From the NCBI GenBank assembly GCA_034436195.1, contig DAOTWS010000176.1, forward strand, positions 113 to 64,112: 64,000 nt of DNA. The letters run 5' to 3'. The notes beneath the pieces were generated by a model. That model was not told where the DNA came from and did no database searches. It was given only the letters and a program-made list of their open reading frames with translations. The position numbers and the translations under genes are program-made. Of this stretch, positions 1-64,000 are shown piece after piece (the stretch's first letter is position 1; each line of letters begins with the position of its first letter). The stretch is from Anaerolineae bacterium. GTDB taxonomy: Bacteria > Chloroflexota > Anaerolineae > Promineifilales > Promineifilaceae.

Positions 1-1
1 A

Positions 2-73
2 ATTAGACAGCAGGCAGGTTTGCCAACTGATGAGTTTGTTGTAGCGGCAGAAAATGGCGCAGAAGCTGAATAA
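2..73 (+). CDS. 3' end of an unidentified CDS entering from the left edge
   Basis: Frame 2 is open from the window edge to TAA 71-73 (...DEFVVAAENGAEAE*) and is followed by a hairpin plus T-run at 119-158. Only 23 codons are visible and no domain is recognisable. Confidence 0.25.
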   Translation: MRQQAGLPTDEFVVAAENGAEAE

Positions 74-118
74 TCAGGCACAATAAATCCAGTTTTCCCT
101 TTGGGAATTCCCAAAAGA

Positions 119-158
119 GCGGGTTTGTCTGTTTCGGAGCAGACAGGCTCGCTTTTTT
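119..158 (+). terminator. rho-independent terminator
   Basis: 13-bp stem GCGGGTTTGTCTG/CAGACAGGCTCGC (three G-U pairs), 8-nt loop, then TTTTTT. Confidence 0.6.
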
Positions 159-179
159 GATTTATGATTGGCGATTCGA

Positions 180-209
180 TTGACCTGACTAGTACTTTTT
201 TCCTATAAT
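180..209 (+). promoter_or_regulatory. sigma70-type promoter TTGACC-18nt-TATAAT upstream of the sensor kinase
   Basis: TTGACC at 180-185 and TATAAT at 204-209. A GGAGGG RBS and the ATG at 259 follow. Confidence 0.55.
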
Positions 210-258
210 GTGAATGATGATTGTATTGAGTGGTTGTTGTAATTGAGGGAGGGATTTT

Positions 259-1662
259 ATGGCAGCGCTAGACAGGAGTAAGGGATATTGGCAAAAAAAG
301 GATAAGACGTCGTGGCGTATTCGGATTGCTGCCTGGGTTTTGCAATATCGCTGGCTGGTCATTTTGTTTATTTCGATGTTGTCGCTGACATTTGAAATCA
401 TCGAACATATTTTTACAGTTCAACATGCTATTGACAGCCATTTTTATCGAGAAATTTTTACGTTTGGGGTGGTGTTTCCGGTATTGTTTGGTTTGTTGTT
501 TGATTTGTTGGCAGAAACGGAAACTGAGCGTAATCGCCTGGCGAGCCAGCAAGATGTAGAGCATTTGTTAAATTTGCAATTGGGGATGGCGCACAATTGG
601 GAGGATTTGTCCCGGTTGCTGGCACGCCTGCCGCGGCAAGTGGTTTCGGAGTTGGTGGGGGTGTGTGGGTATGTGTATGATGTGGAGAATGAGGTACTGG
701 AAACGGCCGTTGTCTGGTACAAACCCTATGTGACCATTTCTACCCAACCGCCAATATTGGACAAGTACCAACGCATTTACCTGCTGAAAAAACCGATACT
801 ACAAAAAGTAACACCAAAGCATTATGCCCAATACATCATCCCCGAAAACTGCAACATCTACTGCCTGCCTCTGACACGTAGTGGCCAACTGGTTGCTATT
901 TTGCATCTGTTCCTGCCTGACCAACTGACAATTTCTTCCGAACAAGCCGAAATACTCAACAATCTGGCCCCGGCGTTGGCACTGGCCATTGATAGCCTGC
1001 ACCCTAAAGGAACAGGCATTATTCGTGCTGCCGCCACCGAAGCAGAACGTCGCCGCCTGGCACGTTATTTACATGACACATTGGGGCAAAATCTGGGGCT
1101 TTTGTGCCTTAAGCTGGATCAGTTACAGGGAAACGATGTCCTGAACGAAGTGGCAGCCATTCGGGAAGAATTGGCACAAATGTACAATGTAGCCAATCAG
1201 GCTTATGAACAAGTGCGGCAAACGCTTACCCAACTCAAACCTGTTTTTCACGAAAACTTGCCGGCAGCATTACGACAAGAAGCAGAGCAGTTTGAACAAC
1301 ATTGGCAGTTACCAATTAATTTAGCAGTGCGTGGAGAGTTAAATATCATTCCTCATGATACCCAAGAAAAAATAATGGGAATTGTGCATGAAGCTTTATT
1401 GAATATTGGTAAGCATGCCCACGCTCATAAGGTCTCGCTTGAGGTAGAGCAGTTGGGAGATATGTTAACTATTACTATAGAGGATGATGGAATCGGATTT
1501 GATCCATTTGGCGATGAACCGGCCGGGCATTATGGGTTGTTGATTATGAAAGAACGAGCGAAGGAGATAAACGGCCGTCTTCACATCCAATCTACACCTG
1601 GTCAGGGTACTATTGTTGTTCTCTCCCTCCCCATTCCTGCACCTGTTCTCACTCCCATCTGA
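259..1662 (+). CDS. sensor histidine kinase, NarX/DegS-like (2-TM N-terminus, GAF-like middle, HisKA_3, HATPase_c)
   Basis: H-box ERRRLARYLHDTLGQNLG. ATPase motifs HEALLNIGKHAHA, DDGIGFD and GHYGLLIMKERA...GQGT. Hydrophobic N-terminus. RBS GGAGGG. Confidence 0.9.
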   Translation: MAALDRSKGYWQKKDKTSWRIRIAAWVLQYRWLVILFISMLSLTFEIIEHIFTVQHAIDSHFYREIFTFGVVFPVLFGLLFDLLAETETERNRLASQQDVEHLLNLQLGMAHNWEDLSRLLARLPRQVVSELVGVCGYVYDVENEVLETAVVWYKPYVTISTQPPILDKYQRIYLLKKPILQKVTPKHYAQYIIPENCNIYCLPLTRSGQLVAILHLFLPDQLTISSEQAEILNNLAPALALAIDSLHPKGTGIIRAAATEAERRRLARYLHDTLGQNLGLLCLKLDQLQGNDVLNEVAAIREELAQMYNVANQAYEQVRQTLTQLKPVFHENLPAALRQEAEQFEQHWQLPINLAVRGELNIIPHDTQEKIMGIVHEALLNIGKHAHAHKVSLEVEQLGDMLTITIEDDGIGFDPFGDEPAGHYGLLIMKERAKEINGRLHIQSTPGQGTIVVLSLPIPAPVLTPI

Positions 1663-1697
1663 TCATCCCCCAATTCCCTGTCAAATAATAATTCTCC

Positions 1698-2696: not shown

Positions 2697-3344
2697 TTGG
2701 AAGTGTCTATGCTGTCAAAGACCGGGAAAATGCGTTGGTCGTCATGGTGGTTGTTTACGGGACTCATGATGATCTTTATAACGCTAGCAGAATTGTTTGA
2801 ACACAAAATGGTTAGCCCGTCCTGGTCTCGCTTTTTGTTGATGACTGAACTGATAGTCAGTGGTGTGGTTATTCCAATGGCATTGGGAGTTGTGTTGAAT
2901 GAGTTGGTAATGGTGAAGGGGCGGGTAATGAGAAAGAAAAATGAGATGGGAAAAACGGCCGTTTCTCCCCCCAAGGTTTTGCTAATTGGCAACGCCTCCC
3001 TCCTGGGTGCCAGCCTGGAACAACTCCTTTGCCAAAAAACCCATTTCCAAATCACCACTATCTCCGCCCCGGCCACACCCAAAGATCTCCTTCAGCAAAT
3101 CAGTCAATACCAGCCAGACACCCTTATCATCAACACCGACCAGATACCAATTACCCCTCAAGTGCTGGCAATTCTGCAAAAACGTTCCCGCTTACGCATG
3201 CTGGCTGTCCAGGGAGAAACCAATGAAATTCAAATCTATGAAAAAGAAACGCTCCCAATCCACAGTACGGCCGATTTCATCCAAAAGTGCAACATCAAAA
3301 CGGCCACTTCCGAATCAAAAAAGGAGGAAAGTCAATGTGAATGA
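2697..3344 (+). CDS. membrane protein: 2-TM module paralogous to the kinase N-terminus, plus a degenerate receiver-like domain
   Basis: TM module ...LAELFEH...GVVIPMALGVVLNEL resembles the kinase ...LTFEIIEH...GVVFPVLFGLLFDLL. The C-terminal part reads VLLIGNASL...PDTLIINTD...LAV, which is receiver-like but lacks the acidic pair. The TTG at 2697 or the ATG at 2709 could be the start. Confidence 0.6.
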   Translation: MEVSMLSKTGKMRWSSWWLFTGLMMIFITLAELFEHKMVSPSWSRFLLMTELIVSGVVIPMALGVVLNELVMVKGRVMRKKNEMGKTAVSPPKVLLIGNASLLGASLEQLLCQKTHFQITTISAPATPKDLLQQISQYQPDTLIINTDQIPITPQVLAILQKRSRLRMLAVQGETNEIQIYEKETLPIHSTADFIQKCNIKTATSESKKEESQCE

Positions 3345-3398: not shown

Positions 3399-6300
3399 AT
3401 GAATGCACAAACAACCATACATACAAAAACAGTTCCTCTGCGTCGGCTCTGGTTAAGCCGACTCATGTTCGTTCTCCTCCTGCTGATTTTGGCACTATTT
3501 GGCTCACAACGTGCCGTCAAATCAGCCTCTACCATTACTCTCGAAGTACGCGAATATGTACCTGGCGCACCTCCTGGTACCGGCCCCCTCATCACCACCT
3601 ACGCCTATCTGGTCAATGAAGATAACACCGGCGATCCATTTGATCCGGACCCTGCCAAACATCCCTCCCTGAAACCAATGGCCAGTTACAGTCCAGTGGT
3701 AGCCATGGGAGACGATACCAGCTCATCGCTTACACTCGATGACGGCCGTTACCTCATCTCCGTTCGTGCCGACGGCTACAAAATGGGAGGCAAACACATT
3801 CGCCTGCCAGACGACTCCGGCACAGTAATCATTGAACTCGTCCCCGAGCCCCTTCCCCTCTCCAAAATCCGCGTTCACGTCTTCCATGACAACAACCCTG
3901 TTAACGGCGAAGACGACATCCCCCGTGAAGAAGGACTCGAAGGATTTCGCGTCATTATCGAAGACGGATCCGGCGAAGTCACCGTAGACTGGTTTGGCAA
4001 CCCACTCTGTACTCAATACGATGGCAACCCCAACGGCAGCACCCCCTTGGGCGACCCCATCCCCGGCACAGGCGGTATTTGCTACACCGACGCCAACGGC
4101 GATCTGGTCATCCCAAACCTGGGCCGCAACAAATACGAAGTCATCGCCATACCACCCGATGGCCAGGAAAACGACTGGATCCAAACCACCACCATCGAGG
4201 GCACTCACGTTATCGACGCATGGGTTGAAGAAGGAAACACAGGCTACAGCCCCCGAGAAGGCTTTCAACAAGCAATGGTCTGGATTGGCTTCGTCCAGCG
4301 ATGCACCTTCGGAGATCCCAACGACACTTGTCCAGCCAACGATACGCCCGGCTCAGGCACAATCATGGGAACCGTCAAAACTGTCATCGAATGGATTCCA
4401 CCCACAGCCCCCCTAATCCTCGGCGATCCCGTAGATCGCCCCTGGATAGCTCTGACAGACATCGGCGGAACCGACCAACAAGTTTATCTGGGGCGAGGCA
4501 ATCCAGATGGCAGTTTTGTTATCAACAATGTCCCTGATGGTGTCTACCAGCTTGTTGTTTGGGATGAACCACTGGATTACATCATCTCTTTCTTCACCGT
4601 TACCGTTGACAGCAGTGTAAACGGTGGCGTCGTTGATATGGGAGAATTTGGAATCCCACGATGGTATGGCTGGATTTCCGGCTATGTATTTTTGGATGAA
4701 AATCGAAACGGCATCAAAGATCCAGGCGAACCGGGTATTCCTCGTGTTGATCTGGACACACGATTCCGTGACGGTTCGATCCAATACACAACTGTAACTG
4801 ACGAAAACGGCTACTACGAATTCCCCGAAGTCTTCGAGTTAGAAAAGTTTGCTGTTGCTGAAGTAGGATTCGGCCGTATGGGGACCAGTGGCGCATCTGT
4901 CCATGATGAATACAACACCAACCTCATCAAATCTGTCCATCCGGATGTCCTTACTCTGGCCGAATTAACGTGGGCAGCCAAGCGGAGCATTATTGATTGG
5001 GGCAAATTCAACTATTTGCCTGGCGAAAACGGCGGCATATCCGGAATCGTTTACTACGCCACAATGCGCAACGAAACAAATGCCCAACTTGCAGCCGCAG
5101 AAGATTATGAACCGGGCGTTCCCAATGTCACTGTTCGTCTCTACGACGAAACCGGCACTATCTTGCTTAACGAAACTCAAACTGATGCCTGGCAGCATCC
5201 AACCAATTGTGATTATCTGGATGCAAATGGGTTGCCCGTTCCTGATCCGCTAGATCTCGGTCCAAAGTGCGTAGAAGTTCCCAACATATCCAATGAAGTT
5301 AAGGATGGTGTGTTTGATGGTGGCTACGCGTTCAATAGTTACTGGACACCATACTATGGTGCGCCAGGAGCAACAGAAGTAACAGGATTGCCGCCAGGGA
5401 ACTATGTTGTTCAGGTTGTGCCCCCTCCATTCTTTAAGGTGCTGGAAGATTCTGATGTGAACACGTCGGATGGAAACCAGGTAACCCCAAATGGGCCAGC
5501 TATTAACATTCCCGCAGCAGGCTGTTCTGGTGGAGACTGCTCCAAACGCATTGTTACTTTACAAGAAGGACAAAATGCGGCGGCAGATTTCTTCTTGTTA
5601 ACGGAAAATGCCGTGCCCATTCCAGGTCGAATTTTTGGCTTCTTGCTGGATGACCTGAATATCGAAACCGATCCCAACTTTATTTACTACGGTGAGAAGC
5701 GGGGGATTCCGTTCACGCCTGTAGGAATTCGGGATTTTACTGGTCGGCTAATCACTACAGTGTATTCGGATGAGAATGGTATTTTTGAGGTGTTGCTCCC
5801 ATCCACTTTTGTGGCAAATTGCCCAACACCAGGCGGTGTTTGTCCAGCTATTTATCATGTAGTGGGCAACGATCCGGGGGATCCAGGTAATCCTAACCCT
5901 GGCTATAACCCCAATTATCAGACATTGACGTTTACATTTGATGTCTGGCCGGGTAAGACAACGTATGCCGATGTGGCGTTGTTCCCTATTACTGCATTTA
6001 CTGCTGGTGGAGGGGGGCAGTTTAACCAACCGGCGCAATGTAATTTGCCGGATGGTACACCTGAGTTATGGGCAGTATCTCAGCCTTATGGCAGTGTCGG
6101 GGATTCGTTTACGATTACCGGTGTGAATTTTGGGGCGACACAGGGGAGTGGTTCTGTAACGATTGATGGTGTGCCGTTGTTGGTAAATTCGTGGTCGGAT
6201 ACGCTGCTGGATGTCACGATTCCTCCGGGATTTTCTGCAGGGGCGGGACAGTTGATGATTACGGCCGATAATGGTCTGAGTACGGTCAATGGGTTGACGT

Positions 6301-8261
6301 TCCACGTGTTGGGAATGGGTTATAACCCAACTGTTGTTAATGTGTATCCTGATCCAAATCCCGCGGCTACCCCGATTCAGAATGCTATTGATGCGGCTTT
6401 TGGGAATACGCTGATTGTAGTAAATCCGGGTGTTTACTATGAGAGTATTACGCTGAATAAGGGGCGTGTGAAGTTGCAGGGCGTTGGGCCAGGTGAGCCA
6501 ACGTTGGGTACAGGCGGCTCGGTATTGGATGAACGGTTTGCAGTGGAAAGTATTATTGTTACCGGTGCACCTAATACGTTTGGGCCGCTGTTTAATCCGC
6601 AAATTGATGGATTTAAGATTACAGGTGGACGTGATCAGCAAGATGTTGGTGGCGGGTTGCATGTAGATGTAAACGGCCGTTATCTGGAAATCAGCAACAA
6701 CATCATCCAAAGCAACGGCGGCAACTTCGGTGGCGGCATCACCATTGGCGAACCATATCGGGGCGACAACAACAACGACCGCATCCGCATTCACCATAAC
6801 CGTATCCTCAACAACGGCGGCATCAGCCTGGCCGGTGCTATCGGCATCTTCAATGGTGCCAACCAGTACGAAATCGCCTACAACGAAATTTGCGGCAACT
6901 ATTCGGCCGAGTACGGTGGTGGTATCTCTCACTTCGGTCTCAGTCGTCAGGGCAGCATCCACCACAACAAAATCTACTACAACAATGCCTTTGATGAAGG
7001 TGGTGGCATCCTGATCGCTGGTGAACAATTCTTCAACCCCGAAAATCCAAACGAACCAGCACCTAACCTTACCGTTGGATCTGGCGAAGTGGACATCTAC
7101 AACAACCTGATTCAATCCAACCTGTCCAATGACGATGGGGGCGGTATCAGGCTCTTACAGCCCTGGGACTACAGAATCCGCATCTTCAACAACATTATCG
7201 TAAACAATGTCTCCACTGATTTTGGCGGTGGCATTGCCCTCGACGATGCCTCAGACGTTCTCATCATGAACAATACGATCGCCAAAAACGTCAACACTTC
7301 CACTGCCGAAGACTCAGACGGATTACCACACGCCGCTGGACTAACAGCCGAGGCTTATAGCACCCAATTCACCAACTATCTGGTAAATACCTATGGCTCA
7401 GCTGCTCCTGGTTTCCCCGATCCAGTCATGTTCAACAACATTTTCTGGGAAAATCAGGCTTATACCTGGGATGGCCTGCAACTGGTATTTAACAGCATCA
7501 TGGACATGGAAGTGTTTGGGACGATTACACCTGCCTCTTTTACCGGTCATCCCAGCAACATGATCGGTGTCAACCCACAGTTTGTATCACCTTATGATAC
7601 GGTATTGGATGCAGTAGCCTTCCGCATGGAGCCAAACTTTATCACTGTGGTATATGTGACAGTTGATCTGACGGCCGCTTTGCCGGGCAACTATCATCTG
7701 ACAGGTGGTTCTCCAGCTGTTGATGTAGGTGTGTCTTCACTGGGGCCAATTGCTGCCCCGGCAGATGATATTGATGGTGAATCCAGACCACAAAATGGCC
7801 TGTTTGACGTTGGCGCAGATGAATTGACAGGAACACCGCCGCCGCCACCACCAACACCAACGCCACCACCACCGACACCCACACCATTACCCACGCCTAC
7901 GCCCCCACCCACACCGACACCACCACCGCCAGCAGGCTGCACAACAAATTGTCTGCGTGTGACAAGTATTGATTTGACACCATTTGTGCGTGGTAATAAC
8001 GGCCGTGTTCGGGCAGTCATCACCGTACGCGATGAAAACAACATACCAGTAGAAAATGCACGCGTATATGTCACCTGGACATTGCCCAATACCACTACCC
8101 CCCTCACACTAAATGAAGGCACAAACGGACAAGGACTTGTGCGCTTCATGGCAGAAGATGGATTAGGCACTTACACCATCACAATTGATGACATCACACT
8201 AGGAGGCTACACCTTTGACACAACCAATAGCGTACTAAGTGCGACCATCACCATACCATAA
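3399..8261 (+). CDS. 1620-aa secreted multidomain protein: SdrD-B/CarboxypepD_reg-like beta-sandwiches, IPT/TIG, right-handed parallel beta-helix (PbH1) repeats, Pro/Thr linker, C-terminal beta-sandwich
   Basis: - N-terminal hydrophobic signal/anchor.
- GYVFLDENRNGIKDPGEPGI...TDENGYYEF (SdrD-B-like).
- FTITGVNFGATQGSGSVTIDGVP...LTFHV (IPT/TIG).
- Repeated NNxIxxNxGxxGGGI beta-helix turns.
- DIDGESRPQNGLFDVGADE tail.
- A PT-rich linker. Confidence 0.85.
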   Translation: MNAQTTIHTKTVPLRRLWLSRLMFVLLLLILALFGSQRAVKSASTITLEVREYVPGAPPGTGPLITTYAYLVNEDNTGDPFDPDPAKHPSLKPMASYSPVVAMGDDTSSSLTLDDGRYLISVRADGYKMGGKHIRLPDDSGTVIIELVPEPLPLSKIRVHVFHDNNPVNGEDDIPREEGLEGFRVIIEDGSGEVTVDWFGNPLCTQYDGNPNGSTPLGDPIPGTGGICYTDANGDLVIPNLGRNKYEVIAIPPDGQENDWIQTTTIEGTHVIDAWVEEGNTGYSPREGFQQAMVWIGFVQRCTFGDPNDTCPANDTPGSGTIMGTVKTVIEWIPPTAPLILGDPVDRPWIALTDIGGTDQQVYLGRGNPDGSFVINNVPDGVYQLVVWDEPLDYIISFFTVTVDSSVNGGVVDMGEFGIPRWYGWISGYVFLDENRNGIKDPGEPGIPRVDLDTRFRDGSIQYTTVTDENGYYEFPEVFELEKFAVAEVGFGRMGTSGASVHDEYNTNLIKSVHPDVLTLAELTWAAKRSIIDWGKFNYLPGENGGISGIVYYATMRNETNAQLAAAEDYEPGVPNVTVRLYDETGTILLNETQTDAWQHPTNCDYLDANGLPVPDPLDLGPKCVEVPNISNEVKDGVFDGGYAFNSYWTPYYGAPGATEVTGLPPGNYVVQVVPPPFFKVLEDSDVNTSDGNQVTPNGPAINIPAAGCSGGDCSKRIVTLQEGQNAAADFFLLTENAVPIPGRIFGFLLDDLNIETDPNFIYYGEKRGIPFTPVGIRDFTGRLITTVYSDENGIFEVLLPSTFVANCPTPGGVCPAIYHVVGNDPGDPGNPNPGYNPNYQTLTFTFDVWPGKTTYADVALFPITAFTAGGGGQFNQPAQCNLPDGTPELWAVSQPYGSVGDSFTITGVNFGATQGSGSVTIDGVPLLVNSWSDTLLDVTIPPGFSAGAGQLMITADNGLSTVNGLTFHVLGMGYNPTVVNVYPDPNPAATPIQNAIDAAFGNTLIVVNPGVYYESITLNKGRVKLQGVGPGEPTLGTGGSVLDERFAVESIIVTGAPNTFGPLFNPQIDGFKITGGRDQQDVGGGLHVDVNGRYLEISNNIIQSNGGNFGGGITIGEPYRGDNNNDRIRIHHNRILNNGGISLAGAIGIFNGANQYEIAYNEICGNYSAEYGGGISHFGLSRQGSIHHNKIYYNNAFDEGGGILIAGEQFFNPENPNEPAPNLTVGSGEVDIYNNLIQSNLSNDDGGGIRLLQPWDYRIRIFNNIIVNNVSTDFGGGIALDDASDVLIMNNTIAKNVNTSTAEDSDGLPHAAGLTAEAYSTQFTNYLVNTYGSAAPGFPDPVMFNNIFWENQAYTWDGLQLVFNSIMDMEVFGTITPASFTGHPSNMIGVNPQFVSPYDTVLDAVAFRMEPNFITVVYVTVDLTAALPGNYHLTGGSPAVDVGVSSLGPIAAPADDIDGESRPQNGLFDVGADELTGTPPPPPPTPTPPPPTPTPLPTPTPPPTPTPPPPAGCTTNCLRVTSIDLTPFVRGNNGRVRAVITVRDENNIPVENARVYVTWTLPNTTTPLTLNEGTNGQGLVRFMAEDGLGTYTITIDDITLGGYTFDTTNSVLSATITIP
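7831..7936 (+). repeat. Pro/Thr low-complexity linker coding repeat
   Basis: Encodes GTPPPPPPTPTPPPPTPTPLPTPTPPPTPTPPPPAG from CCN/ACN-rich degenerate repeats. Confidence 0.8.
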
Positions 8262-8352: not shown

Positions 8353-9657
8353 ATGAACAAGAAAAAACAACCACCCAAACTAAATCGGCGACAATTTCTG
8401 CGCCTGGGACTGGGAGGTGGCGGTGCATTGGTACTAACAGCAGCCAGTGTGCTGGCACGGGCGGACAAGCTACGAGAACTGGCAGCAACAAGTACGGCTT
8501 CTCAAGTGGCTGCACCAGTTGCCCCTGAGCCAGCAGCCTCTACTGTTGTACAGGGCACAAATATTCGGCTGGCCGCTACGGATGGGCACATTTTGCTGCC
8601 AGGCAGAACACGGCCGTTATACACTTTCGGTTTTGTCGAAGCCGATCCTAACGCCTCAATTCGAGATGTCATCGCCGCCTACAAAGGCAAAGTGCAAATG
8701 TGTTCCCCTATTCTGGATGTGAATGAAGGGGATGAAGTGTATCTGACTCTCACCAACCTGGGATTCCAATTCCGCCCAGATTTGGACGATTCTCACACCA
8801 TTCACTGGCATGGTTTTCGCAATCCAGTTGCCATTTTTGATGGTGTGCCAGAAGTATCCATCGCTGTGCCGGTTGCCCGAAACTTTCCCTACTTCTTCCA
8901 TCCCGAACATCCGGGAACATATATGTACCATTGCCATTTTGAGGATGTGGAACACGTACAAATGGGGATGAATGGTATTGTGTTTGTTCGCCCCTTACAG
9001 AATAACGGAACAGGCAGTTTGCCCCCAGGCAAATATTGTTACAACGACGGGGATGGCTCAACAGCATACGATCGGGAAGTGACGCTGATGTTAAATGAAA
9101 TTGATACCCGTCCTCACGACTTGCTGGAAGAGGTACAAGATTTTGTCTGGTCAGATTATAAGCCGAATTACTGGATCATAAACGGCCGTGCCTATCCGGA
9201 TACCATCAAGCCCAGCAACGACCCATCCCTGCCCTACCAGCCCATTTCGTCACTTATTCAGGCAAATCCCGGCGAAAAAATCCTGTTACGCTTCGCCAAC
9301 CTTGGCTATGAACAACACGCCATGCAATTAACCGGCATTCCCATGAAAGTAGTTGGGCACGATGCAACGCTGCTACGCAGCCCTGACGGTTCAGATCTCA
9401 GCTACTATACGAACACCATTTACATTGGGCCTGGAGAGGCACGCGATGTCATCTTCGAAGCACCGGCATTTGATCCCACAGCCGAAACTGGCACAGACAG
9501 CATAGGAACTTACAACGTCTACCTGCTAAAAAACCGGAACTATTTCGCCCAGACAAACGACGGATTACCAGGACTTGGCGGCATGGTTACAGAGGTGCGC
9601 GTTTATAACGGTTCACCTCTGCCCCCACAAACCAAGCCAAACGAGACATTTACATAA
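8353..9657 (+). CDS. two-domain multicopper oxidase paralogue A: Tat signal; domain 1 has a full T1 site plus two HxH pairs; domain 2 has no ligands
   Basis: RBS GGAGG before the ATG at 8353. Tat motif NRRQFLRLGLGG. HTIHWHG at 8794-8814. YHCHFEDVEHVQMGM at 8926-8970. Domain 2 reads GYEQHAMQLTG where HxxHxH is expected. Confidence 0.85.
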   Translation: MNKKKQPPKLNRRQFLRLGLGGGGALVLTAASVLARADKLRELAATSTASQVAAPVAPEPAASTVVQGTNIRLAATDGHILLPGRTRPLYTFGFVEADPNASIRDVIAAYKGKVQMCSPILDVNEGDEVYLTLTNLGFQFRPDLDDSHTIHWHGFRNPVAIFDGVPEVSIAVPVARNFPYFFHPEHPGTYMYHCHFEDVEHVQMGMNGIVFVRPLQNNGTGSLPPGKYCYNDGDGSTAYDREVTLMLNEIDTRPHDLLEEVQDFVWSDYKPNYWIINGRAYPDTIKPSNDPSLPYQPISSLIQANPGEKILLRFANLGYEQHAMQLTGIPMKVVGHDATLLRSPDGSDLSYYTNTIYIGPGEARDVIFEAPAFDPTAETGTDSIGTYNVYLLKNRNYFAQTNDGLPGLGGMVTEVRVYNGSPLPPQTKPNETFT

Positions 9658-9704: not shown

Positions 9705-10979
9705 ATGTCTGTAAAAGTGAAAAAACACGCCAGGCCCGGCATTTTACTATTCAGCCTGATTCTACTGGCAATGATTGTGCTGGTGGGATTTGGGGGCAGA
9801 GTACGACGTGCCGCAGCAGCTGGCAGTACAACGATGGTTTGCACCTATGGCCCAACATTTGATTTGCGAACTACCGACGGGTACACCAGCACCCCTGATG
9901 GCAATAGCCTGTACTATTGGGGGTTTGCAAATATGAATGATGGTTTGGGTGGCGCATTTCAACAACCTGGTCCTGTACTTTGTGTCAATGAAGGGGACAC
10001 AGTGGTTATAAATCTGCAAAATGATTTAACCGAACCGGTTTCTATTGTGTTTCCAGGACAGGAAGGAGTCACAGCAACTGGAGGTGTGCCAGGCCTGCTA
10101 ACAGCAGAAGCTCCCCCAGGAGGCAGTGTGACATACACTTTTGTGGCGACTGCCCCAGGTACGTATTTGTATGAAAGTGGTACAGAACCGCATAAACAGG
10201 TGCAAATGGGATTGTTTGGGGCGCTGGTTGTGCGTCCGGCTATGGGAGCAAATTTTGCTTATAATGACCCGACCACAGAGTTTAATCCGGATCGGGAATA
10301 TTTGTTGCTGATTCATGATGTGGATCCGGAGTTGCATTATGCAGTGGAACATGGTTTGCCGTATGATGTGACGACGATGCATGATCGGTATTGGACGATA
10401 AACGGCCGTTCCTTCCCCGACACTATCGCCCCCAACTTCGCCCCCTGGTTACCAAACCAACCTTATGGCGCACTCGTCCGCATCGAACCATACGATGCCA
10501 CCAACAACCCCCTACCAGCGCTTGTACGATATGCAAATGCCGGTATGGTCAACCACCCCTTCCATCCACACGGCAACAACCTGACTATTATTGGCCGAGA
10601 CGGCCGTTTACTCCGTGGTCCTAACGGCGAAAACACCTCCTTCGAAAGCTTCACCACCACCGTTGGCTCCGGACAAACTTTCGACCTCCTGGCCCAATGG
10701 TTCGACGTCGAAGCATGGAATCAAAACAACAACCCCATCCCCGTACAACTCCCCGGCCTCTACAACCTGGTCACCAAAGACGGCGCCACCTTCTACAGCG
10801 GCAGCCCCTACCTGGGCCAAAAAGGTGACCTGCTAGTCGGCAACACCTCCTATAACGAATGTGGCGAATTCTACTTCCCCTGGCACAGCCATGCCCTCAA
10901 CGAATTTCAAAACTTCGATGAAGGCTTCGGCGGTCTGGCAACCCTCTGGCGAATCGATCCGCCCGGCGGATGCCAATAA
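9705..10979 (+). CDS. two-domain multicopper oxidase paralogue B: domain 1 has no ligands; domain 2 has HxxHxH and HSH (no T1 Cys)
   Basis: RBS AAGGAG and an N-terminal signal/anchor. Domain 1 reads VSIVFPGQ and YESGTEPHKQVQMG in place of ligand motifs. HPFHPHG at 10554-10574. WHSH at 10881-10892. Confidence 0.85.
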   Translation: MSVKVKKHARPGILLFSLILLAMIVLVGFGGRVRRAAAAGSTTMVCTYGPTFDLRTTDGYTSTPDGNSLYYWGFANMNDGLGGAFQQPGPVLCVNEGDTVVINLQNDLTEPVSIVFPGQEGVTATGGVPGLLTAEAPPGGSVTYTFVATAPGTYLYESGTEPHKQVQMGLFGALVVRPAMGANFAYNDPTTEFNPDREYLLLIHDVDPELHYAVEHGLPYDVTTMHDRYWTINGRSFPDTIAPNFAPWLPNQPYGALVRIEPYDATNNPLPALVRYANAGMVNHPFHPHGNNLTIIGRDGRLLRGPNGENTSFESFTTTVGSGQTFDLLAQWFDVEAWNQNNNPIPVQLPGLYNLVTKDGATFYSGSPYLGQKGDLLVGNTSYNECGEFYFPWHSHALNEFQNFDEGFGGLATLWRIDPPGGCQ

Positions 10980-13028: not shown

Positions 13029-13526
13029 ATGCATGAAGTGTCTTTGAGTGTGCATGGGAGAAAACGGCCGTTTTCCTTCACAATGTTACTTTTTCTCGCC
13101 CTGATTCTGGCTCTGGTTGGTTTACTTATCTGGATGGCCGTGACTCAATTCGGTCATATCATAACCGGCAACCGCCCCCAATCTGCTGCTGAGTTACCTC
13201 AAACAACCTTTACCGAAGCAACTGGTGTCCGTATTATGCTGGTAGCCATCACAGCCGGCGGCGGTATGATCGACCTTCGCTATCAGATTGCCGATCCGGA
13301 CAAGGCTGTTATTGTGCATGATGAAGAAAATCCCCCCACAATTATTGACGAACGCACTGGCAAAGTGATCTCCCGCCCCTGGCACGATCACGCTCATGAC
13401 CAGGATTTACATACGGCCGTTACCTATTACGAACTCATCCTCAACCCCGATGGTCTCATTCGGCCTGGCCAAACCGTCACCATACGCATTGGCAATGCTG
13501 AACTCAAACATGTCCCGGTACAATAA
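13029..13526 (+). CDS. membrane-anchored hypothetical protein with a His-rich patch (WHDHAHDQDLH)
   Basis: One TM segment (MLLFLALILALVGLLIWMAV) followed by a ~110-aa soluble domain. It sits between the MCO genes and copC. I recognise no family. Confidence 0.55.
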   Translation: MHEVSLSVHGRKRPFSFTMLLFLALILALVGLLIWMAVTQFGHIITGNRPQSAAELPQTTFTEATGVRIMLVAITAGGGMIDLRYQIADPDKAVIVHDEENPPTIIDERTGKVISRPWHDHAHDQDLHTAVTYYELILNPDGLIRPGQTVTIRIGNAELKHVPVQ

Positions 13527-51470: not shown

Positions 51471-53054
51471 ATGTTTCGTATTCTGGTATCTGACAAGCTG
51501 GGAGAAGCTGGCTTACAAAAGTTGGCCGCTGCCACAGATATTCACTACGATGTCAAAACCGGGCTGAGTAAGGATGAGTTGCTGCAAATCATTCCGGAAT
51601 ATGATGCGCTGATTATTCGCAGCGGCACAAAAGTGGATGCAGAGGTGCTAAAAGCTGGTACACGCCTGAAAGTGGTGGGGCGGGCAGGAATTGGTGTAGA
51701 TAATGTTGATGTGTCTGCAGCTACTCGCCAGGGCGTTATTGTGATGAATACGCCAGAAGCAAATAGCATTGCCACGGCCGAACAGACGATGGCTCTTATG
51801 TTGGCCGTTAGTCGCCATACGGCACAGGCACACGCATCTTTGCTGGCAGGTGAATGGAAGCGTTCGCAGTTTGTGGGTACACAATTGTATGGCAAGGTGC
51901 TGGGAATTATTGGGCTGGGCAGAATCGGCCGTTTAGTTGCCCAACGCGCTCAGGCTTTTGGCATGAACGTACTCGCCTTTGACCCGTATGTTTCCGAAGC
52001 TGTAGGACGGGAATATCGTGTTACCCTGGTTGACCTGGATGATCTGTTAGCCCAGGCAGACTACATCACCCTGCACACAGCTTTGTTGCCAGAAACCGAA
52101 CGAATGATCAATGCAGAAACAATTGCTCAAATGAAAGAGGGGGTCATTCTGGTTAATGTAGCACGGGGCAAGTTGGTTGATGAGGCAGCTCTGGCAGAGG
52201 CGTTGCAAAGTGGTAAGGTGAAAGCGGCGGCTGTAGATGTGTATTCGGAAGAACCCCCACGAAACAATCCACTGATTGGCCTGCCAAATGTATTGCACAC
52301 ACCTCATTTAGGGGCAAGTACCAGGGAAGCGCAACGAGAAGTTGCCATTCAAATTGTGGATCAGGTGTTGGATGCATTACATGGTCGGGATTTTCGGAAT
52401 GCGCTGAATTTGCCATTCCAGGCAGGGCTGGATTTTCGGCAGGCTCAGCCGTATATGAAACTGGCAGAAAAGCTGGGGCAATTGCATGCTGGATTGGCTG
52501 ATGGTGTTATTCGCCGAGTGGAGATTGGTGTGCAAGGTGATGCGCTGCAAGATATGGTGCGGGCGGTTGCGGCAGGTGTCCTGAAAGGTATTCTTCATGG
52601 CCAGGTTGAAGGGCCTCTGAATTACGTGAATGCGCCTGTACTGGCAAATGAAGCCGGTATTAGCACGACACAAGTTGTACTGGATTCGGCACTGGATTAT
52701 CCTAACTTGATTTCTTGTCGGGCTGTATGGGATGGTGGAGAGCATGTATTGTCTGGTGTGCTGTTTGGTGGGAATGAGCCGCGTATTGTTCAGGTAGATG
52801 CGTATCAGCTGGAAGCAAATCCTTCTGGCGTGGTTTTGATTTTGCAGAATCAGGATGTGCCTGGGGTAATTGGTCAAGTGGGGACAATTTTGTCGGCATA
52901 TGAAGTGAATATTGGTGAGTGGCGAATGGGGCGGGATCGGCCGGGTGGTGAGGCGTTGTCGTTTATTAATCTGGATAGTGCGCCTCCGGCGGCTGTGTTG
53001 GAGGCGTTGCAGGGAGTAACGGCCGTTACTCACGTTCGTCTGATCCACTTATAG
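51471..53054 (+). CDS. serA: D-3-phosphoglycerate dehydrogenase with ASB and ACT domains
   Basis: GIIGLGRIGRLVAQRA, VNVARG, HTPHLGAST, and a C-terminal ACT region (VLILQNQDVPGVIGQVGTIL). Confidence 0.93.
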   Translation: MFRILVSDKLGEAGLQKLAAATDIHYDVKTGLSKDELLQIIPEYDALIIRSGTKVDAEVLKAGTRLKVVGRAGIGVDNVDVSAATRQGVIVMNTPEANSIATAEQTMALMLAVSRHTAQAHASLLAGEWKRSQFVGTQLYGKVLGIIGLGRIGRLVAQRAQAFGMNVLAFDPYVSEAVGREYRVTLVDLDDLLAQADYITLHTALLPETERMINAETIAQMKEGVILVNVARGKLVDEAALAEALQSGKVKAAAVDVYSEEPPRNNPLIGLPNVLHTPHLGASTREAQREVAIQIVDQVLDALHGRDFRNALNLPFQAGLDFRQAQPYMKLAEKLGQLHAGLADGVIRRVEIGVQGDALQDMVRAVAAGVLKGILHGQVEGPLNYVNAPVLANEAGISTTQVVLDSALDYPNLISCRAVWDGGEHVLSGVLFGGNEPRIVQVDAYQLEANPSGVVLILQNQDVPGVIGQVGTILSAYEVNIGEWRMGRDRPGGEALSFINLDSAPPAAVLEALQGVTAVTHVRLIHL

Positions 53055-53137: not shown

Positions 53138-53878
53138 TTATTTGGGGTAAATGCGAACTTTACGGCGTTTGCCTTCTCCTACGCTTTGGGTGTACACATA
53201 TTTGTCGTTGCGTAGTGTCATGTGAATAATTCGTCGTTCGTGGGGGGGCATTGGCTCCAGACTGATCGGCCGTTTCCGCTTGCTTACCTTGCGCGCCATT
53301 CGTTCTGCCAGTCGGGTAAGTGCTTTCTCACGTCGTTGCCGATAACCTTGCACGTCCAGGATAAAAGTGGCACGCCGATGTAAGCGATGACCAACCATAA
53401 GACGGGTCACATATTGTAATGCGTTAAGTGTTTCGCCCCGTACGCCAATCAAGCCGGCCAAATTCTCTCCCTGAATATCCAAGACTAATACCTGGCGCCC
53501 TGTCAAATCGTCGGGAGGAGAAAGGCGGGGGGTGATTGTGGCCTGGATGTCCATTTTTTCCAGCATGGACTGCAAGATTTCGGTAGCTACTTGTTCTTCT
53601 TCGGTAAGTTGCTCACTGAAAACGGCCGTTTTTGGGGCAACCTGTTCTGCAGGCACGGCGGCGACAGCCGCTGGCGCCGGTTTAGGCGCGGGCACTGTCA
53701 ATGGTGTTAACCGCACCACTGCATCCCGACTCCCAATGCCCAACAAACCACGACTCCCCTCATCTACCACTTCGATAATCACATCACTACGGCCAATACC
53801 TAATTGAGCCAGCCCTGCTTCAATTGCCGATTCAACATCAGGGCCTCGTACCTCTATTTCACGTTTGGTCTCTGACAT
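53138..53878 (-). CDS. jag: Jag/KhpB-type RNA-binding protein (Jag_N, KH, R3H)
   Basis: VESAIEAGLAQLG...LQYVTRLMV...ERRIIHMTLRNDKYVYTQSVGEGKRRKVRIYP. Confidence 0.88.
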   Translation of the reverse strand: MSETKREIEVRGPDVESAIEAGLAQLGIGRSDVIIEVVDEGSRGLLGIGSRDAVVRLTPLTVPAPKPAPAAVAAVPAEQVAPKTAVFSEQLTEEEQVATEILQSMLEKMDIQATITPRLSPPDDLTGRQVLVLDIQGENLAGLIGVRGETLNALQYVTRLMVGHRLHRRATFILDVQGYRQRREKALTRLAERMARKVSKRKRPISLEPMPPHERRIIHMTLRNDKYVYTQSVGEGKRRKVRIYPK

Positions 53879-53907: not shown

Positions 53908-54810
53908 CTAACGCTTGCCTGACCGCCGTTTGCGTTTGGATTGTGGTCTGGTCTTTTTAGGCGGCTTGTTGTTTGCTGCTGGTGCCTGAGATTCATCAAT
54001 AGGTTCCGGATCTGGCATTGGTTCTGGTTCTGGAATAGCGTCCGATGGCGCAGAAACGGCCGTTTGTGCCTCCGCCTCTGCTTCACGTGCCATCACCTGT
54101 CGCATATACACACCCTGGAAAATACCAATTATGTTCGACAACACAAAATAAATAGACAATCCTGCCTGAAACTGCAAGGAGAAAAAGCCAAACATAATCG
54201 GCATGGTATATTGCATTGACTGAGTCATTGCCGCCGTTGGGTCATCTTGCTGTTTCTTATTATCTGCCTGCGGACGATTAGCCGTTGGCGAAAGAAACTT
54301 CTGCTGCAAATACATGGTAGCAAATACCAACACCGGCAAAACAAACAATGGATCGGGTTGTCCCAAATTCATCCACAAGAACCGATTGGAAATTGGCAAC
54401 AATTGGCTCAAGTCAATGCCTGGATATACCCGTTGCGTGAGCAAAAAGAGTGACTGGGGTGTTGAACTCAAAACCAAACGCAACACCTGAAACAGGCCAA
54501 ACAAAACCGGCATCTGAATCAGCAATGGCAAACACCCACCCAGTGTTTCGGCAGGGTTGTAGCCAATCTTCTGAAACTCCTCTTGCATCTTTTGCGGATT
54601 ATCCCGATACTTTTTCTGAATGGCCTGAATCTGCGGTTGCAGCTTCTGCATTTTCATGCTGGAACGCTGCTGGCGAATGTTCAGAGGAAGCGTTAGCAAC
54701 CGGATAAGAATTGTAAACACCGTAATGGCCAACACAAAGTTGTTGCCCAGAATGGCATAGAGCCACAACAATGCATTGGTCATGGGATTGATGATTAGTA
54801 AGTCCCACAT
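53908..54810 (-). CDS. yidC: membrane protein insertase YidC (short form) with a basic tail
   Basis: ILIRLLTLPL...QKLQPQIQAIQKKY...GCLPLLIQMPVLFGLF...MQYTMPIMFGFF. Confidence 0.92.
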   Translation of the reverse strand: MWDLLIINPMTNALLWLYAILGNNFVLAITVFTILIRLLTLPLNIRQQRSSMKMQKLQPQIQAIQKKYRDNPQKMQEEFQKIGYNPAETLGGCLPLLIQMPVLFGLFQVLRLVLSSTPQSLFLLTQRVYPGIDLSQLLPISNRFLWMNLGQPDPLFVLPVLVFATMYLQQKFLSPTANRPQADNKKQQDDPTAAMTQSMQYTMPIMFGFFSLQFQAGLSIYFVLSNIIGIFQGVYMRQVMAREAEAEAQTAVSAPSDAIPEPEPMPDPEPIDESQAPAANNKPPKKTRPQSKRKRRSGKR

Positions 54811-54837: not shown

Positions 54838-55983
54838 TTATTCTGACGCGGCAGGCAAGAATGCCCATTGCTGACCACCTGTCACCAGGTCAAAGGCCAT
54901 TAGCAATGCCTGCTCGCTTTGCATGGCTACAACAATTACATTATCAACGACGACAGGTGTGGCAAACAAAGGGGCAGGGGTTGTTTTTTGCCATTTTACT
55001 TGTCCGTTTGTCACATCAAGCGCCGAAAGCACCCCCTGACCAGTTTCCTTGTTTCCTTCGGAAACAATGTAGAGAGTGTCGTTAACCACAATGGGAGAAG
55101 CTGTCACTGCCCCTTCAACTTGCTGTACCCAGAGACGTTCGCCGGAATCGGCCGTTACTGCATATACGTTTCCGTCAATATCAGCATAGTATAGGGTATC
55201 ACCATTTAGTGCTGGTGCACCCCACACCCAATTTTCAGCTTCGGCAGCCCATTTTTCCTGGCCAGTTTCTTCATCCAAGGCATGTACCTTGCCATCAAAA
55301 CTGGAAACATATATTAGCCCGGAATCAACAACCGGTTGGCTGGCTATAGCACCTTGTAGTTCCTGGCGCCAAATCCGATTGCCTGACTGGGCATCTACAG
55401 CATGCACGGCTTTATCCAGAGAAGCGACATAAACGATACCGTTTTTATAAGCGGGTTGTGCCCACACGCTGTTTTCCAGTTCATATTGCCATTGGAGAGA
55501 ACCGGTGTTGGCATCGAGGGCTAATAGTTTGTTATCGGCCGTTCCCACATACACCGTATCTTCTACTTGCAACGGCGGCGCTACGATATGGTCCTGTGCC
55601 AGCCCATCTTGCTGCCATAGTAATTCTGGCGAACTGCTATCCGTGTCTTGCAATGCGTAAATACTGGCAATGACGCCTGGGGAGAACATACCGCCAGACG
55701 CGCCGTAGTCACCGATGATGATACGGCCGTTTTGCACCGATGGCGCCGCATAAAATTGCAATGTTCTATTTGGTTCTTCAGGAAAACTCCAGACCTGGGT
55801 CTGTTTTTCAACATCGTACGCAATAACACCCGGACCATAAGCGATGTAAATGCGTTTGCCATCAGTGGAAAGACCCGGCCAGTTTGTATTGGCAATTCCG
55901 CCAGAACAGGCAGCCAAAAATATGCTGGTCAGAATGAGAATAAATATTGCAGGCCGCAAAAACGGCCGTTTCGCTGTGTACAA
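54838..55983 (-). CDS. PQQ-like (BamB-type) beta-propeller repeat lipoprotein
   Basis: Lipobox FLAACSG. Repeated ...YV(G/A)(T/S)xDxxxxAxDaxtGxxxW... blades. Confidence 0.8.
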   Translation of the reverse strand: MYTAKRPFLRPAIFILILTSIFLAACSGGIANTNWPGLSTDGKRIYIAYGPGVIAYDVEKQTQVWSFPEEPNRTLQFYAAPSVQNGRIIIGDYGASGGMFSPGVIASIYALQDTDSSSPELLWQQDGLAQDHIVAPPLQVEDTVYVGTADNKLLALDANTGSLQWQYELENSVWAQPAYKNGIVYVASLDKAVHAVDAQSGNRIWRQELQGAIASQPVVDSGLIYVSSFDGKVHALDEETGQEKWAAEAENWVWGAPALNGDTLYYADIDGNVYAVTADSGERLWVQQVEGAVTASPIVVNDTLYIVSEGNKETGQGVLSALDVTNGQVKWQKTTPAPLFATPVVVDNVIVVAMQSEQALLMAFDLVTGGQQWAFLPAASE

Positions 55984-56206: not shown

Positions 56207-56208
56207 GG

Positions 56209-56592
56209 CTAAACCCCACTGGCCACGTCATTTGTGCGAGAAGTCGCCTGAGGGGAGCGGTAAAGACCAGCACGGGAAAGCAACGCCAAAACGGCCGTTT
56301 CCACTTCCGCATACGAAACAGCCGCTGTCTGCTCCCGGGCAATCAGCACCACATCCCACCCAGCCTCAATTTCGTCCAAATGACGCCGCACAACCTCCCG
56401 CAACAATCGTTTTGCCCGATTGCGGGAAGTAGCCTTACCTACACGTCGGCTGGCCACAAACGCAAACCGACTTACCTCTTCAGCATTAGCTTGCACCAAC
56501 AAAATAGCCAGGGGATGACGCCAGCTTCGACCCAATTGCCTGACGCGCTCCAAATCAGTGGCGCGACGTAAACGGTGGCACTGGGGAAGCAT
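56209..56592 (-). CDS. rnpA: ribonuclease P protein component
   Basis: [24 protein letters not shown]. Located downstream of rpmH. Confidence 0.9.
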
Positions 56593-57010: not shown

Positions 57011-57075
57011 ATGAAGATTGGCGTGGGTGAAAGAACGGCCGTTTCCCACCCTCACAACCAACACCCATCACTCAA

Positions 57076-58485: not shown

Positions 58486-59262
58486 ATGCCTTTTATTAAG
58501 TTGGGAAATCAGGATTTATTTTTTGCACAACATATTCCTCGCAATGCGAAGCAGGTATTGATTTTGGTACATGGGGCAGGTGGTTCGCATCTGGATTGGC
58601 CGGCAGAGGTGCGGCGTTTGCCAGAAACGGCCGTTTTTGCTCTGGATCTGCCCGGACACGGCCGTTCATCTAAACCGGGTCGTACCAGTGTCTCAGGCTA
58701 TGCCCAAATTGTCCACGAGTTCATCGAAACCCTTTACCTGGAAAATGTTGTCGTTGCCGGTCATTCGATGGGTGGAGCCATTGCGCAAACGATTGGCTTA
58801 CGGCAATTGCCCCAGGTTGCTGGCCTGATTCTTGTGGGCACAGGTGCTCGTCTGCGTGTTACCGACGCGATATTGGGGAGTATTTTGCGTGATTTTGATG
58901 CCGCTGTGCAGACAATTACCCAATTAGCCTGGGCACCTGATGCACCACCGGAATTGGTGGCCAAGGGGAAGGAGATGTTGGCCCACAATGACCCCAATGT
59001 ATTATTTGGTGATTACAACGCCTGCAACCAATTTGATGTTATGAATCAACTGGGCAAAATCAATGTGCCTGTGCTAGTGATTAGCGGCACAGCAGACCAG
59101 CTGACACCGATGAAATACGGCCGTTACCTGGCCGACAACATTCCCCATGCCCAACTCGTCACCATTGACGGGGGTGGACACATGATGGCCCTTGAACAAC
59201 CTCAGGCTGTGGCACAAGCCATCACCAAATTCCTGAACACACTCAAAACATCCAAACATTAA
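58486..59262 (+). CDS. alpha/beta hydrolase
   Basis: LILVHGAGGS, nucleophile elbow VVAGHSMGGAIA, and GGHMMALEQP. Confidence 0.85.
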   Translation: MPFIKLGNQDLFFAQHIPRNAKQVLILVHGAGGSHLDWPAEVRRLPETAVFALDLPGHGRSSKPGRTSVSGYAQIVHEFIETLYLENVVVAGHSMGGAIAQTIGLRQLPQVAGLILVGTGARLRVTDAILGSILRDFDAAVQTITQLAWAPDAPPELVAKGKEMLAHNDPNVLFGDYNACNQFDVMNQLGKINVPVLVISGTADQLTPMKYGRYLADNIPHAQLVTIDGGGHMMALEQPQAVAQAITKFLNTLKTSKH

Positions 59263-59272: not shown

Positions 59273-61399
59273 ATGAGCTTAAAAACCGATCCCACACTTT
59301 CCCCCTTTTTCACACCAAAGGGTGTTGTTCTCGTTGGTGCATCCCAAAATCCTGCCAAACTCGGTTTTGGTCTGGCACGAAACCTTGTTCAGAGCGGATA
59401 TCGGGGTGCCATTCATTTTGTTAGCCCACGTGGGGGCACCTTGCTGGAACGCCCCATTTACACCAGCATTGCGGCTGTGCCCGATCCGGCAGACCTGGCT
59501 GTACTCCTCATTCCGGCACCAGTTGTCCCACAAGCATTACAAGAATGTGGTAAACGAGGAATTCGTGCAGTTATCATTGCCTCTGGTGGTTTTCGGGAAA
59601 CTGGTGCAGAAGGAGCGGCTCTGGAAACGCAATGTTTACAAATTGCGCGCACATATGGTATTCGTCTGGTTGGGCCAAACTGTATTGGTATCCTGGATAC
59701 TCATGTGCCCATTGATACAACCTTTTTGCCACCACCCGGCCCCACCCCAGGAGATGTGGCTTTCATTTCACATTCAGGGGCAATTTGTGCGGCTGTTATT
59801 GACTGGGCACGCGGACAGGGGTTTGGTCTTTCTCGCCTGGTTAGCCTGGGTAATCAGGTGGATGTGCAGGAAACAGATATGCTGGCGCCGGTAGCATCTG
59901 ATCCATATACGCATGTTATTACGTTGTATCTGGAAGGAGTAAGTGACGGCCGTCGCTTTGTGGCCGAAGCTGCCAGGGTGACGCGGGAGAAACCTATTGT
60001 TGCTCTGAAAGTCGGCCGTTTTGCCAGCGGCCAAAAGGCTGTTGCCTCTCATACTGGGGCATTGGCCGGTCAGGAATCAGCTTTTGATGCCGCATTCCGG
60101 CGGGCTGGCGTTATTCGAGCCGACACCAGCGAAGAACTGTTTGACTGGGCACGTGCATTGGCCTGGTGTCCACCACCAAAGGGGCGACGTGTGGCCGTCC
60201 TGACCAACGCTGGTGGGCCTGGTGTAACAGCAGCAGATGCACTGGAAGCTCACAAGCTGGAACTAGCCGAATTGACACCAGAAACAGTAACCGCTCTGAA
60301 AGAGATTTTGCCCCCAGCAGCCAGTTTGCGAAATCCTGTTGATATGCTGGCTGGTGCTACTCCGACACAGTATGCTGAATGTTTGCGTATTTTGCTGGCC
60401 GATCCAAATGTGGACAGTGTGTTAATGATTTTGCCGCCACCTCCAATGGATTCAGCGGGTGGTGTTGCCCGGGCCACAATTCCGATTATCTATGCGGCAA
60501 CCAAACCGGTTGTGGTGGCGCTGATGGGCGAACGGATGATTCAGGAAGCTGTAGAGCATTTTCGGGCAGCAAAGGTGCCCGAATATCGGTTTCCGGAACG
60601 GGCAGCAGCGGCGCTGGCTATGTTAACGGCACGGGCAGATTATTTGCAGAAGCCGCCTCAGGAAGCGGTGCGGGTGACAGATGTGGACAAGGCTTGTGTA
60701 GCGCGGTTGTTGGCTGAATATGAAATATCGCTGGAAAATGGCGGTTTTTTGCCACAAACGGCCGTTTCCCAAATCATGACAGCATATGGCATCCCGGTGC
60801 CACCCGTCGTGCTGGCACACACACCCGAAGAAGCTGTACACCTCGCTCGTCAGTTTGGCCAACCTGTCGCCCTCAAAGTAGCTTCGCCTGACATCCCGCA
60901 TAAATCGGATGTTGGTGGGGTACTGTTACATCTTATGGGAGACGAAGCAGTAGCTCGTGGCTTTGAACAAGTGGTGACTAATGCACGTACGGCTGCGCCA
61001 ACGGCCGTTATCCAGGGCGTCCACATTCAACCAATGATCCTGGACGGCCAGGAAGTAATTGTAGGTGCTGTCCAAGACCCTCAATTTGGCCCGTTACTGA
61101 TGTTCGGCTCGGGCGGAGTAGAAGTGGAAGGACTAAAAGATGTAGCATTTTCGCTAGCCCCACCCACACAAGCAGAAGCAGATTATTTGCTGGCAAGCAC
61201 ATGGGCAGGACGGAAACTGGATGGATACCGGCAAATACCCGAAGGAGACAAAATGGCCGTGCTCGACATCATCTACCGACTAGGGCAACTCGCCGCCGAC
61301 TTCCCCCAACTTGCCGAAATAGAAATCAACCCCCTGCGCGTCCTGGAAAAAGGAAAAGGCGCATACGCCATTGACATACGCGCCCGCCTCAAACCATAA
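59273..61399 (+). CDS. ADP-forming acetate/acyl-CoA ligase, fused alpha-beta (CoA-binding, CoA-ligase, ATP-grasp)
   Basis: FFTPKGVVLVGASQNPAKLG...GPNCIGIL...SHSGA...VASHTGALAG, with a C-terminal ATP-grasp region (VALKVASPDIPHKSDVGGV). Confidence 0.88.
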   Translation: MSLKTDPTLSPFFTPKGVVLVGASQNPAKLGFGLARNLVQSGYRGAIHFVSPRGGTLLERPIYTSIAAVPDPADLAVLLIPAPVVPQALQECGKRGIRAVIIASGGFRETGAEGAALETQCLQIARTYGIRLVGPNCIGILDTHVPIDTTFLPPPGPTPGDVAFISHSGAICAAVIDWARGQGFGLSRLVSLGNQVDVQETDMLAPVASDPYTHVITLYLEGVSDGRRFVAEAARVTREKPIVALKVGRFASGQKAVASHTGALAGQESAFDAAFRRAGVIRADTSEELFDWARALAWCPPPKGRRVAVLTNAGGPGVTAADALEAHKLELAELTPETVTALKEILPPAASLRNPVDMLAGATPTQYAECLRILLADPNVDSVLMILPPPPMDSAGGVARATIPIIYAATKPVVVALMGERMIQEAVEHFRAAKVPEYRFPERAAAALAMLTARADYLQKPPQEAVRVTDVDKACVARLLAEYEISLENGGFLPQTAVSQIMTAYGIPVPPVVLAHTPEEAVHLARQFGQPVALKVASPDIPHKSDVGGVLLHLMGDEAVARGFEQVVTNARTAAPTAVIQGVHIQPMILDGQEVIVGAVQDPQFGPLLMFGSGGVEVEGLKDVAFSLAPPTQAEADYLLASTWAGRKLDGYRQIPEGDKMAVLDIIYRLGQLAADFPQLAEIEINPLRVLEKGKGAYAIDIRARLKP

Positions 61400-61408: not shown

Positions 61409-62020
61409 TCATCCCAATTCCCGAATCACTCGCTGTAAAAGCGGCGCAATTTGCCGCAAAGCTCGACCACGATGACTGATTTGATGCTTTACAGACGATG
61501 GCAACTCAGCCATCGTCTTCTTTCTCTCCGGCAAATAAAAAACAGGATCATACCCAAACCCCCCTTCTCCGGCAGGCTCCAGGGCAATCATCCCCTCACA
61601 CACACCTTCGGCCGTTCCCAAAAGCACCCCACCAACACCCGCCAAAGCAATCACACACCGAAAACGCGCCCCCCGTTTCGCCCACGGCACATCTGCCAAA
61701 CGCATCAACAACAAACGATACCGCTCCTCATGAGACAACCCTTCTCCACCAAACCGCGCCGTATAAACGCCAGGCGCACCACCCAAAGCATCCACCTCCA
61801 AACCCGAATCATCTGCCAACGTCAACAAACCCGTCAGTCTTGCATACGCTTGCGCCTTCAAAATCGCATTCTCTGCAAACGTGCTCCCCGTCTCTGGCAC
61901 ATCTTCTGTAACTCCCACATCATCCAAATTGCACCAACTCACATCCAATTCTGACAACATTTCCGCGTATTCCCGCACCTTTCCCTTATTGTGCGTCGCT
62001 ACCAACAGCTTCACATTCAT
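61409..62020 (-). CDS. rdgB: dITP/XTP pyrophosphatase (RdgB/HAM1)
   Basis: KLLVATHNKGKVREY...ETGSTFAENAILKA...ADDSGLEVDALGGAPGVYTARF...GFGYDPVF. RBS GGGAGG. Confidence 0.92.
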   Translation of the reverse strand: MNVKLLVATHNKGKVREYAEMLSELDVSWCNLDDVGVTEDVPETGSTFAENAILKAQAYARLTGLLTLADDSGLEVDALGGAPGVYTARFGGEGLSHEERYRLLLMRLADVPWAKRGARFRCVIALAGVGGVLLGTAEGVCEGMIALEPAGEGGFGYDPVFYLPERKKTMAELPSSVKHQISHRGRALRQIAPLLQRVIRELG

Positions 62021-62067
62021 CCTGCCTCCCAAACTTGTGAGTAAATTACCCTCTTTTGAACGAACTA

Positions 62068-62076
62068 TGCTATACT
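62068..62076 (+). promoter_or_regulatory. extended -10 element TGCTATACT upstream of yceD
   Basis: TGn plus TATACT, 40 nt upstream of the ATG at 62116. No clear -35. Confidence 0.35.
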
Positions 62077-62115
62077 GAATTGCTTAATTTTACAGAAAAG
62101 AAGGAAATAAGACCG

Positions 62116-62634
62116 ATGGGTATCAATCACCTTTCCCGGTTACGTTTCAATTTCGGCTTTCTTCTGGAAGCTGCTATGGGAACCAGTCGTGAAATCGAAC
62201 TGGCTTACCCAACAATTCAGATAGAAGAAGTCACATTAACACCATTACGGGGCAAATTCCAGGCCACCCGTACTTCAGAAGGCATCTATCTGACGGGTAC
62301 ATTGTACAGTACAATTCCGACAGAATGCGTTCGCTGCCTGGAAACAATGAACCTGAATATTACGATTCAACTGGATGAATTGTTTTATCATCCACCATTT
62401 GGCGCACCAGAAGGAGCGTCTGTCATTGGCGACAGTGGGATTATTGATCTGGAACCACTGGTACGGGAGTTGGCCTTACTGGAGGTGCCAATGCAACCAA
62501 TTTGTCGTCCAGATTGTCAGGGATTGTGTATGGAGTGTGGGCACAATCTGAATCTGGGTGATTGTGGATGTGAGGAAGATGACATCGATCCTCGTTTGTC
62601 TATTCTGCAGCAATTACTGAAGGGAGAAGAGTAG
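62116..62634 (+). CDS. YceD-family (DUF177) protein
   Basis: CVRCLE...CRPDCQGLCMECGHNLNLGDCGC. Confidence 0.85.
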   Translation: MGINHLSRLRFNFGFLLEAAMGTSREIELAYPTIQIEEVTLTPLRGKFQATRTSEGIYLTGTLYSTIPTECVRCLETMNLNITIQLDELFYHPPFGAPEGASVIGDSGIIDLEPLVRELALLEVPMQPICRPDCQGLCMECGHNLNLGDCGCEEDDIDPRLSILQQLLKGEE

Positions 62635-62659
62635 ATTCGTCCTTTTTCACGGTTAGGGT

Positions 62660-63922
62660 ATGTTTTACGACAAAGCTAAAATTTATATTAAGAGTGGTGA
62701 TGGCGGCGATGGCATGATTAGCTTTCGCCGCGAAAAGTATGTGCCGTTTGGTGGGCCAGATGGTGGCGATGGTGGTCACGGGGGGGATATTGTCTTTGTG
62801 GCTGATAATAATTTGAGCAGTCTGGTGCGCTATCATCGCCAGGTTCATTTTCGGGCAGGCAGTGGCAAGCATGGGGGTAAGTCACGTAAGACTGGGGCAA
62901 ATGGGGAGTCTTTGCGGTTGCCTGTGCCTGTAGGAACTATTATTCGTCATGCAGAAACAGGTGAAATACTGGCAGACTTGACGGAGCATGGGCAGGAAGT
63001 GGTGATATTGCGTGGGGGACGGGGTGGTCGAGGTAATATTCATTTTGCCAATAGTGTTAATCAGGCGCCACGTTTGGCCGAGCGGGGTGAACCTGGTGAG
63101 GAAATGTGGGTTACTCTGGAGCTGAAGTTGATTGCGGATGTGGGGATTGTGGGTGTGCCCAATGCCGGGAAGTCTACTCTTTTGTCAGTGGTGAGTGCGG
63201 CCAAGCCGAAAATTGCCAATTATCCGTTTACTACGTTGCAGCCCAATCTGGGGGTGGTGACGCTGGATGATTATGAAACGATGGTGTTGGCAGATATTCC
63301 CGGATTGATTGAGGGGGCTGCAGAAGGTGTGGGGCTGGGACATGATTTTTTGCGTCATATTGAGCGAACGCGGGTGTTGATTCATTTGCTGGATGGGGCG
63401 GCTCAGGATCCGTTGGAGGATTGGGCAATGGTGAATCAGGAGTTGGCGTTGTATGATGTGGCGCTGGAGAAGAAGCCGCAGTTGGTGGTGTTGAATAAGA
63501 TTGATTTACCGGATGCGCAAGCGTGGGAGCCGTTGGTGAAGGAGGCGGTAACGAAGGCGGGGTTTAAGTTTTGTTCGATTTCGGCCGTTACTGGTCAGGG
63601 TGTGCGCGATATGTTGTACCGTGTGAAGAGGATGCTTGATGCTGCTCCACGGCCTAAGCTTTTTGTGGAGGAGGTTGCAGTCATTCGTCCGGAAATTGAT
63701 GAGGATGTGTTTACGATTGAACGAGAGGAGGATGGCTGGCGTGTGCGTGGTAAAAAGATTGAGCGTATTGCAGCCATGACTTATTTTGAGTTTGATGCCA
63801 CATTGATGCGTTTTCAGCGAATTTTGGATAGTATGGGGATTACAGAGGCGTTGGAGGCGGCGGGGGTGCAGCCGGGTGATACGGTTTATATTGGTGATCA
63901 GGTTTTGGAGTGGAGCGAATAG
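62660..63922 (+). CDS. obg: GTPase Obg/CgtA
   Basis: [42 protein letters not shown]...[11 protein letters not shown]...DIPGLIEGA...NKID..., with a C-terminal OCT domain. Confidence 0.96.
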
Positions 63923-64000
63923 GTTTATTGGGGGGAACGTTTGATCCGCCACATGTGGGGCATTTGTGGCTGGCGGAAACGGCTCGTGATCAGTTGGCTT
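63910..64000 (+). CDS. nadD: nicotinate-nucleotide adenylyltransferase, 5' end (runs off the window)
   Basis: The GTG at 63910 overlaps the obg stop by 13 nt. The frame reads (M)[29 protein letters not shown]. Confidence 0.75.

Follow-up and report, generated by a model that had tools for sequence, protein, structure and literature searches.

A highly iterated palindromic octamer in a group of Chloroflexota and its phages

Results

The window (the whole 64,000-nucleotide stretch that was analysed, 1..64000) corresponds to contig RFGV01000576.1 of the MAG GCA_003696605.1, a Promineifilaceae-like member of the Chloroflexota. It is ordinary chromosomal DNA and contains 81 exact copies of the 8-letter DNA palindrome ACGGCCGT, a density of 1.27 per kb. 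They are given below by ORF (strand in brackets) with their codon phase and, where it exceeds the octamer, the length of the palindrome.

ORF 259-1662(+) contains 703..710 (phase 0, Thr-Ala-Val; 10 nt) and 1571..1578 (phase 1, x-Gly-Arg), ORF 2697-3344(+) contains 2955..2962 (phase 0; 12 nt), and ORF 3399-8261(+) has three phase 1 copies, at 3742..3749, 6673..6680 (10 nt) and 7999..8006. They are followed by 8610..8617 (phase 2, x-Arg-Pro-x) and 9182..9189 (phase 1) in ORF 8239-9657(+), by 10402..10409 (10 nt) and 10600..10607, both phase 1, in ORF 9705-10979(+), by 13064..13071 (phase 2; 16 nt) and 13413..13420 (phase 0) in ORF 12963-13526(+), and by 13961..13968 (phase 0; 14 nt) in ORF 13541-14059(+). 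ORF 14026-15996(+) is read in phase 0 at 14275..14282, 14479..14486 (10 nt), 14701..14708 (12 nt) and 15904..15911 (10 nt), and in phase 1 at 15215..15222; the copy at 16054..16061 is intergenic. ORF 16137-18572(+) has only phase 0 copies (17562..17569; 17736..17743, 12 nt; 18321..18328), and ORF 18645-19487(+) a phase 1 copy at 18841..18848. On the opposite strand, ORF 19488-20033(-) contains 19561..19568 (phase 0), the centre of an 18-nt perfect palindrome (19556-19573), and 19742..19749 (phase 2), while ORF 20623-21726(-) contains 20854..20861 (phase 1), 21452..21459 (phase 0; 10 nt) and 21645..21652 (phase 2; 10 nt).

The panE ORF, 22011-22982(+), has phase 0 copies of 10 nt at 22173..22180 and 22650..22657, and ORF 23888-24577(+) has 23980..23987 (phase 2) and, in phase 0, 24383..24390 and 24443..24450 (10 nt). 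In ORF 24574-26031(-), 24934..24941, 25201..25208 and 25606..25613 (10 nt) are in phase 1 and 25754..25761 (14 nt) in phase 0, and in ORF 27591-28499(-), 27649..27656 (14 nt) and 28210..28217 are in phase 0 and 27743..27750, 27845..27852 (10 nt) and 28355..28362 in phase 2. Three 10-nt copies lie at 28746..28753 (phase 2) and 28820..28827 (phase 0) in ORF 28507-29307(-), and at 30129..30136 (phase 0) in ORF 29342-30406(-). On the forward strand, ORF 30511-31908(+) carries 31387..31394 (phase 0; 10 nt), the GAPDH ORF, 32031-33047(+), phase 1 copies at 32188..32195 and 32707..32714, and ORF 33400-34047(+) phase 1 copies at 33611..33618 and 33806..33813; 34079..34086 is intergenic. The SulP ORF, 34161-36311(+), includes phase 0 copies at 34752..34759, 35190..35197 (10 nt) and 35265..35272, and a phase 2 copy at 36041..36048 (10 nt). 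Further on are 39626..39633 (phase 1; 10 nt) in ORF 38929-39699(+), 40064..40071 (phase 1), 40690..40697 (phase 0; 10 nt) and 40881..40888 (phase 2; 12 nt) in ORF 39718-41379(+), and 42277..42284 (phase 0; 10 nt) and 42438..42445 (phase 2; 12 nt) in ORF 41392-42936(+).

Phase 0 copies are found at 44052..44059 in ORF 44022-45683(+), 47117..47124 in ORF 46901-48502(+) and 48660..48667 (14 nt) in ORF 48612-49448(+), which also has 48850..48857 and 49399..49406 in phase 1. ORF 49445-50476(+) contains 50091..50098 (phase 1) and 50141..50148 (phase 0), both 10 nt, and ORF 51471-53054(+) contains 53019..53026 (phase 0), which sits in the middle of another 18-nt perfect palindrome (53014-53031, GAGTAACGGCCGTTACTC). 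Next, in reverse-strand ORFs, come 53622..53629 (phase 0; 14 nt) in ORF 53138-53878(-), 54056..54063 (phase 0; 12 nt) in the YidC ORF, 53908-54810(-), and 55723..55730 (phase 1) and 55962..55969 (phase 2; 12 nt) in ORF 54838-55983(-). The last ones are 56291..56298 (phase 1; 12 nt) in ORF 56140-56571(+), the intergenic copy downstream of murA (57035..57042; 10 nt), 58627..58634 (phase 0; 12 nt), 58658..58665 and 59117..59124 (both phase 1) in ORF 58411-59262(+), and 59946..59953 (phase 1; 10 nt), 60758..60765 (phase 0; 12 nt) and 61001..61008 (phase 0; 10 nt) in ORF 59273-61399(+).

An earlier note, made by hand tally, had counted the same 81 copies; 80 of its 81 coordinates are exact and one is shifted by one base (53019, not 53020). 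Its roughly 80-fold enrichment was also borne out, as 100 dinucleotide-preserving shuffles gave 0.96 ± 0.92 copies (maximum 4) and Markov models of orders 1, 2 and 3 predict 0.88, 1.61 and 2.34. In an octamer census of the window, ACGGCCGT ranks top by z-score among all 65,536 octamers; those just below are overlapping 8-mers of ACGGCCGT itself, and the second-commonest palindromic octamer has 7 copies. Gaps between copies follow a random (exponential) distribution.

The extended forms AACGGCCGTT, AAACGGCCGTTT and GAAACGGCCGTTTC number 42, 17 and 5, exactly as previously tallied together with the 18-nt palindrome first mentioned above. Where about 30 degenerate copies had been estimated, 32 CGGCCG sites with a single outer base changed were counted beyond the exact ones (27 ACGGCCGA/TCGGCCGT, four with G/C and one with C/G). 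Since these one-off variants hit the outer bases, the core is CGGCCG, the EagI-type hexamer named in the note, which is the invariant part of the word and occurs 122 times against 17-30 expected.

Related MAGs (n=7) carry ACGGCCGT at 1.3–2.7 per kb, and temperate tailed phages at 1.9–3.7 per kb; these same phages avoid the restriction-type palindromes avoided by their hosts. The word is about 80 times above chance in a Chloroflexota group and its phages. Sister lineages carry different words (TCGGCCGA, CCGGCCGG or TGCCGGCA), and more distant Anaerolineae carry no such words.

Discussion

A protein motif was rejected as the explanation, because ACGGCCGT uses all three codon phases (0/1/2: 38/27/13) in genes on both strands, as well as intergenic DNA, at the three positions already listed in the note (16054, 34079, 57035). 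Moreover, ACGGCCGT provides the coding sequence for 37 of the 38 Thr-Ala-Val tripeptides (7.6% expected), and this tripeptide is 4–14 times over-represented. The constraint is therefore on the DNA, as the note had argued, and the word overrides codon usage and distorts peptide composition. A mobile repeat was likewise rejected, given that information content around the word fades out within 5 bp of it.

ACGGCCGT spreads by substitution. Its sites are actively maintained: in the mapping between genomes that had been suggested, at 82% identity, 35 of 37 sites were kept, compared with 27% of the 8-mers used as controls, and protection covers precisely the 8 bp of the word. The most likely cause is a candidate dyad-symmetric DNA-recognising protein, probably a methyltransferase, that would read ACGGCCGT and be coupled to biased repair. 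The note had proposed looking for a methyltransferase specific for CGGCCG or GGCC and for a Vsr-like nuclease; genes for neither lie in the window or the available chromosomal flanks.

Similar density, symmetric palindromic extensions, outer-base variants, substitution spread and conserved sites have all been reported for cyanobacterial HIP1 (PMC4390886, PMC5861425). The resemblance to HIP1 that the note had pointed out extends to every one of these properties, ACGGCCGT having a density of about 1.3 per kb, symmetric extensions, one-off variants at the outer bases, spread by substitution and sites conserved between diverged genomes. Unlike HIP1, it has a different sequence and sits in another phylum (Chloroflexota, not cyanobacteria). 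Full-text literature searches yielded no paper describing ACGGCCGT as a genomic repeat, in agreement with the note, which knew of no description; nor did they turn up a highly iterated palindrome in organisms other than cyanobacteria. ACGGCCGT is a HIP-class element with a new sequence in a new phylum. The cyanobacterial HIP1 repeat has long been unexplained, and ACGGCCGT is its counterpart in a different phylum.

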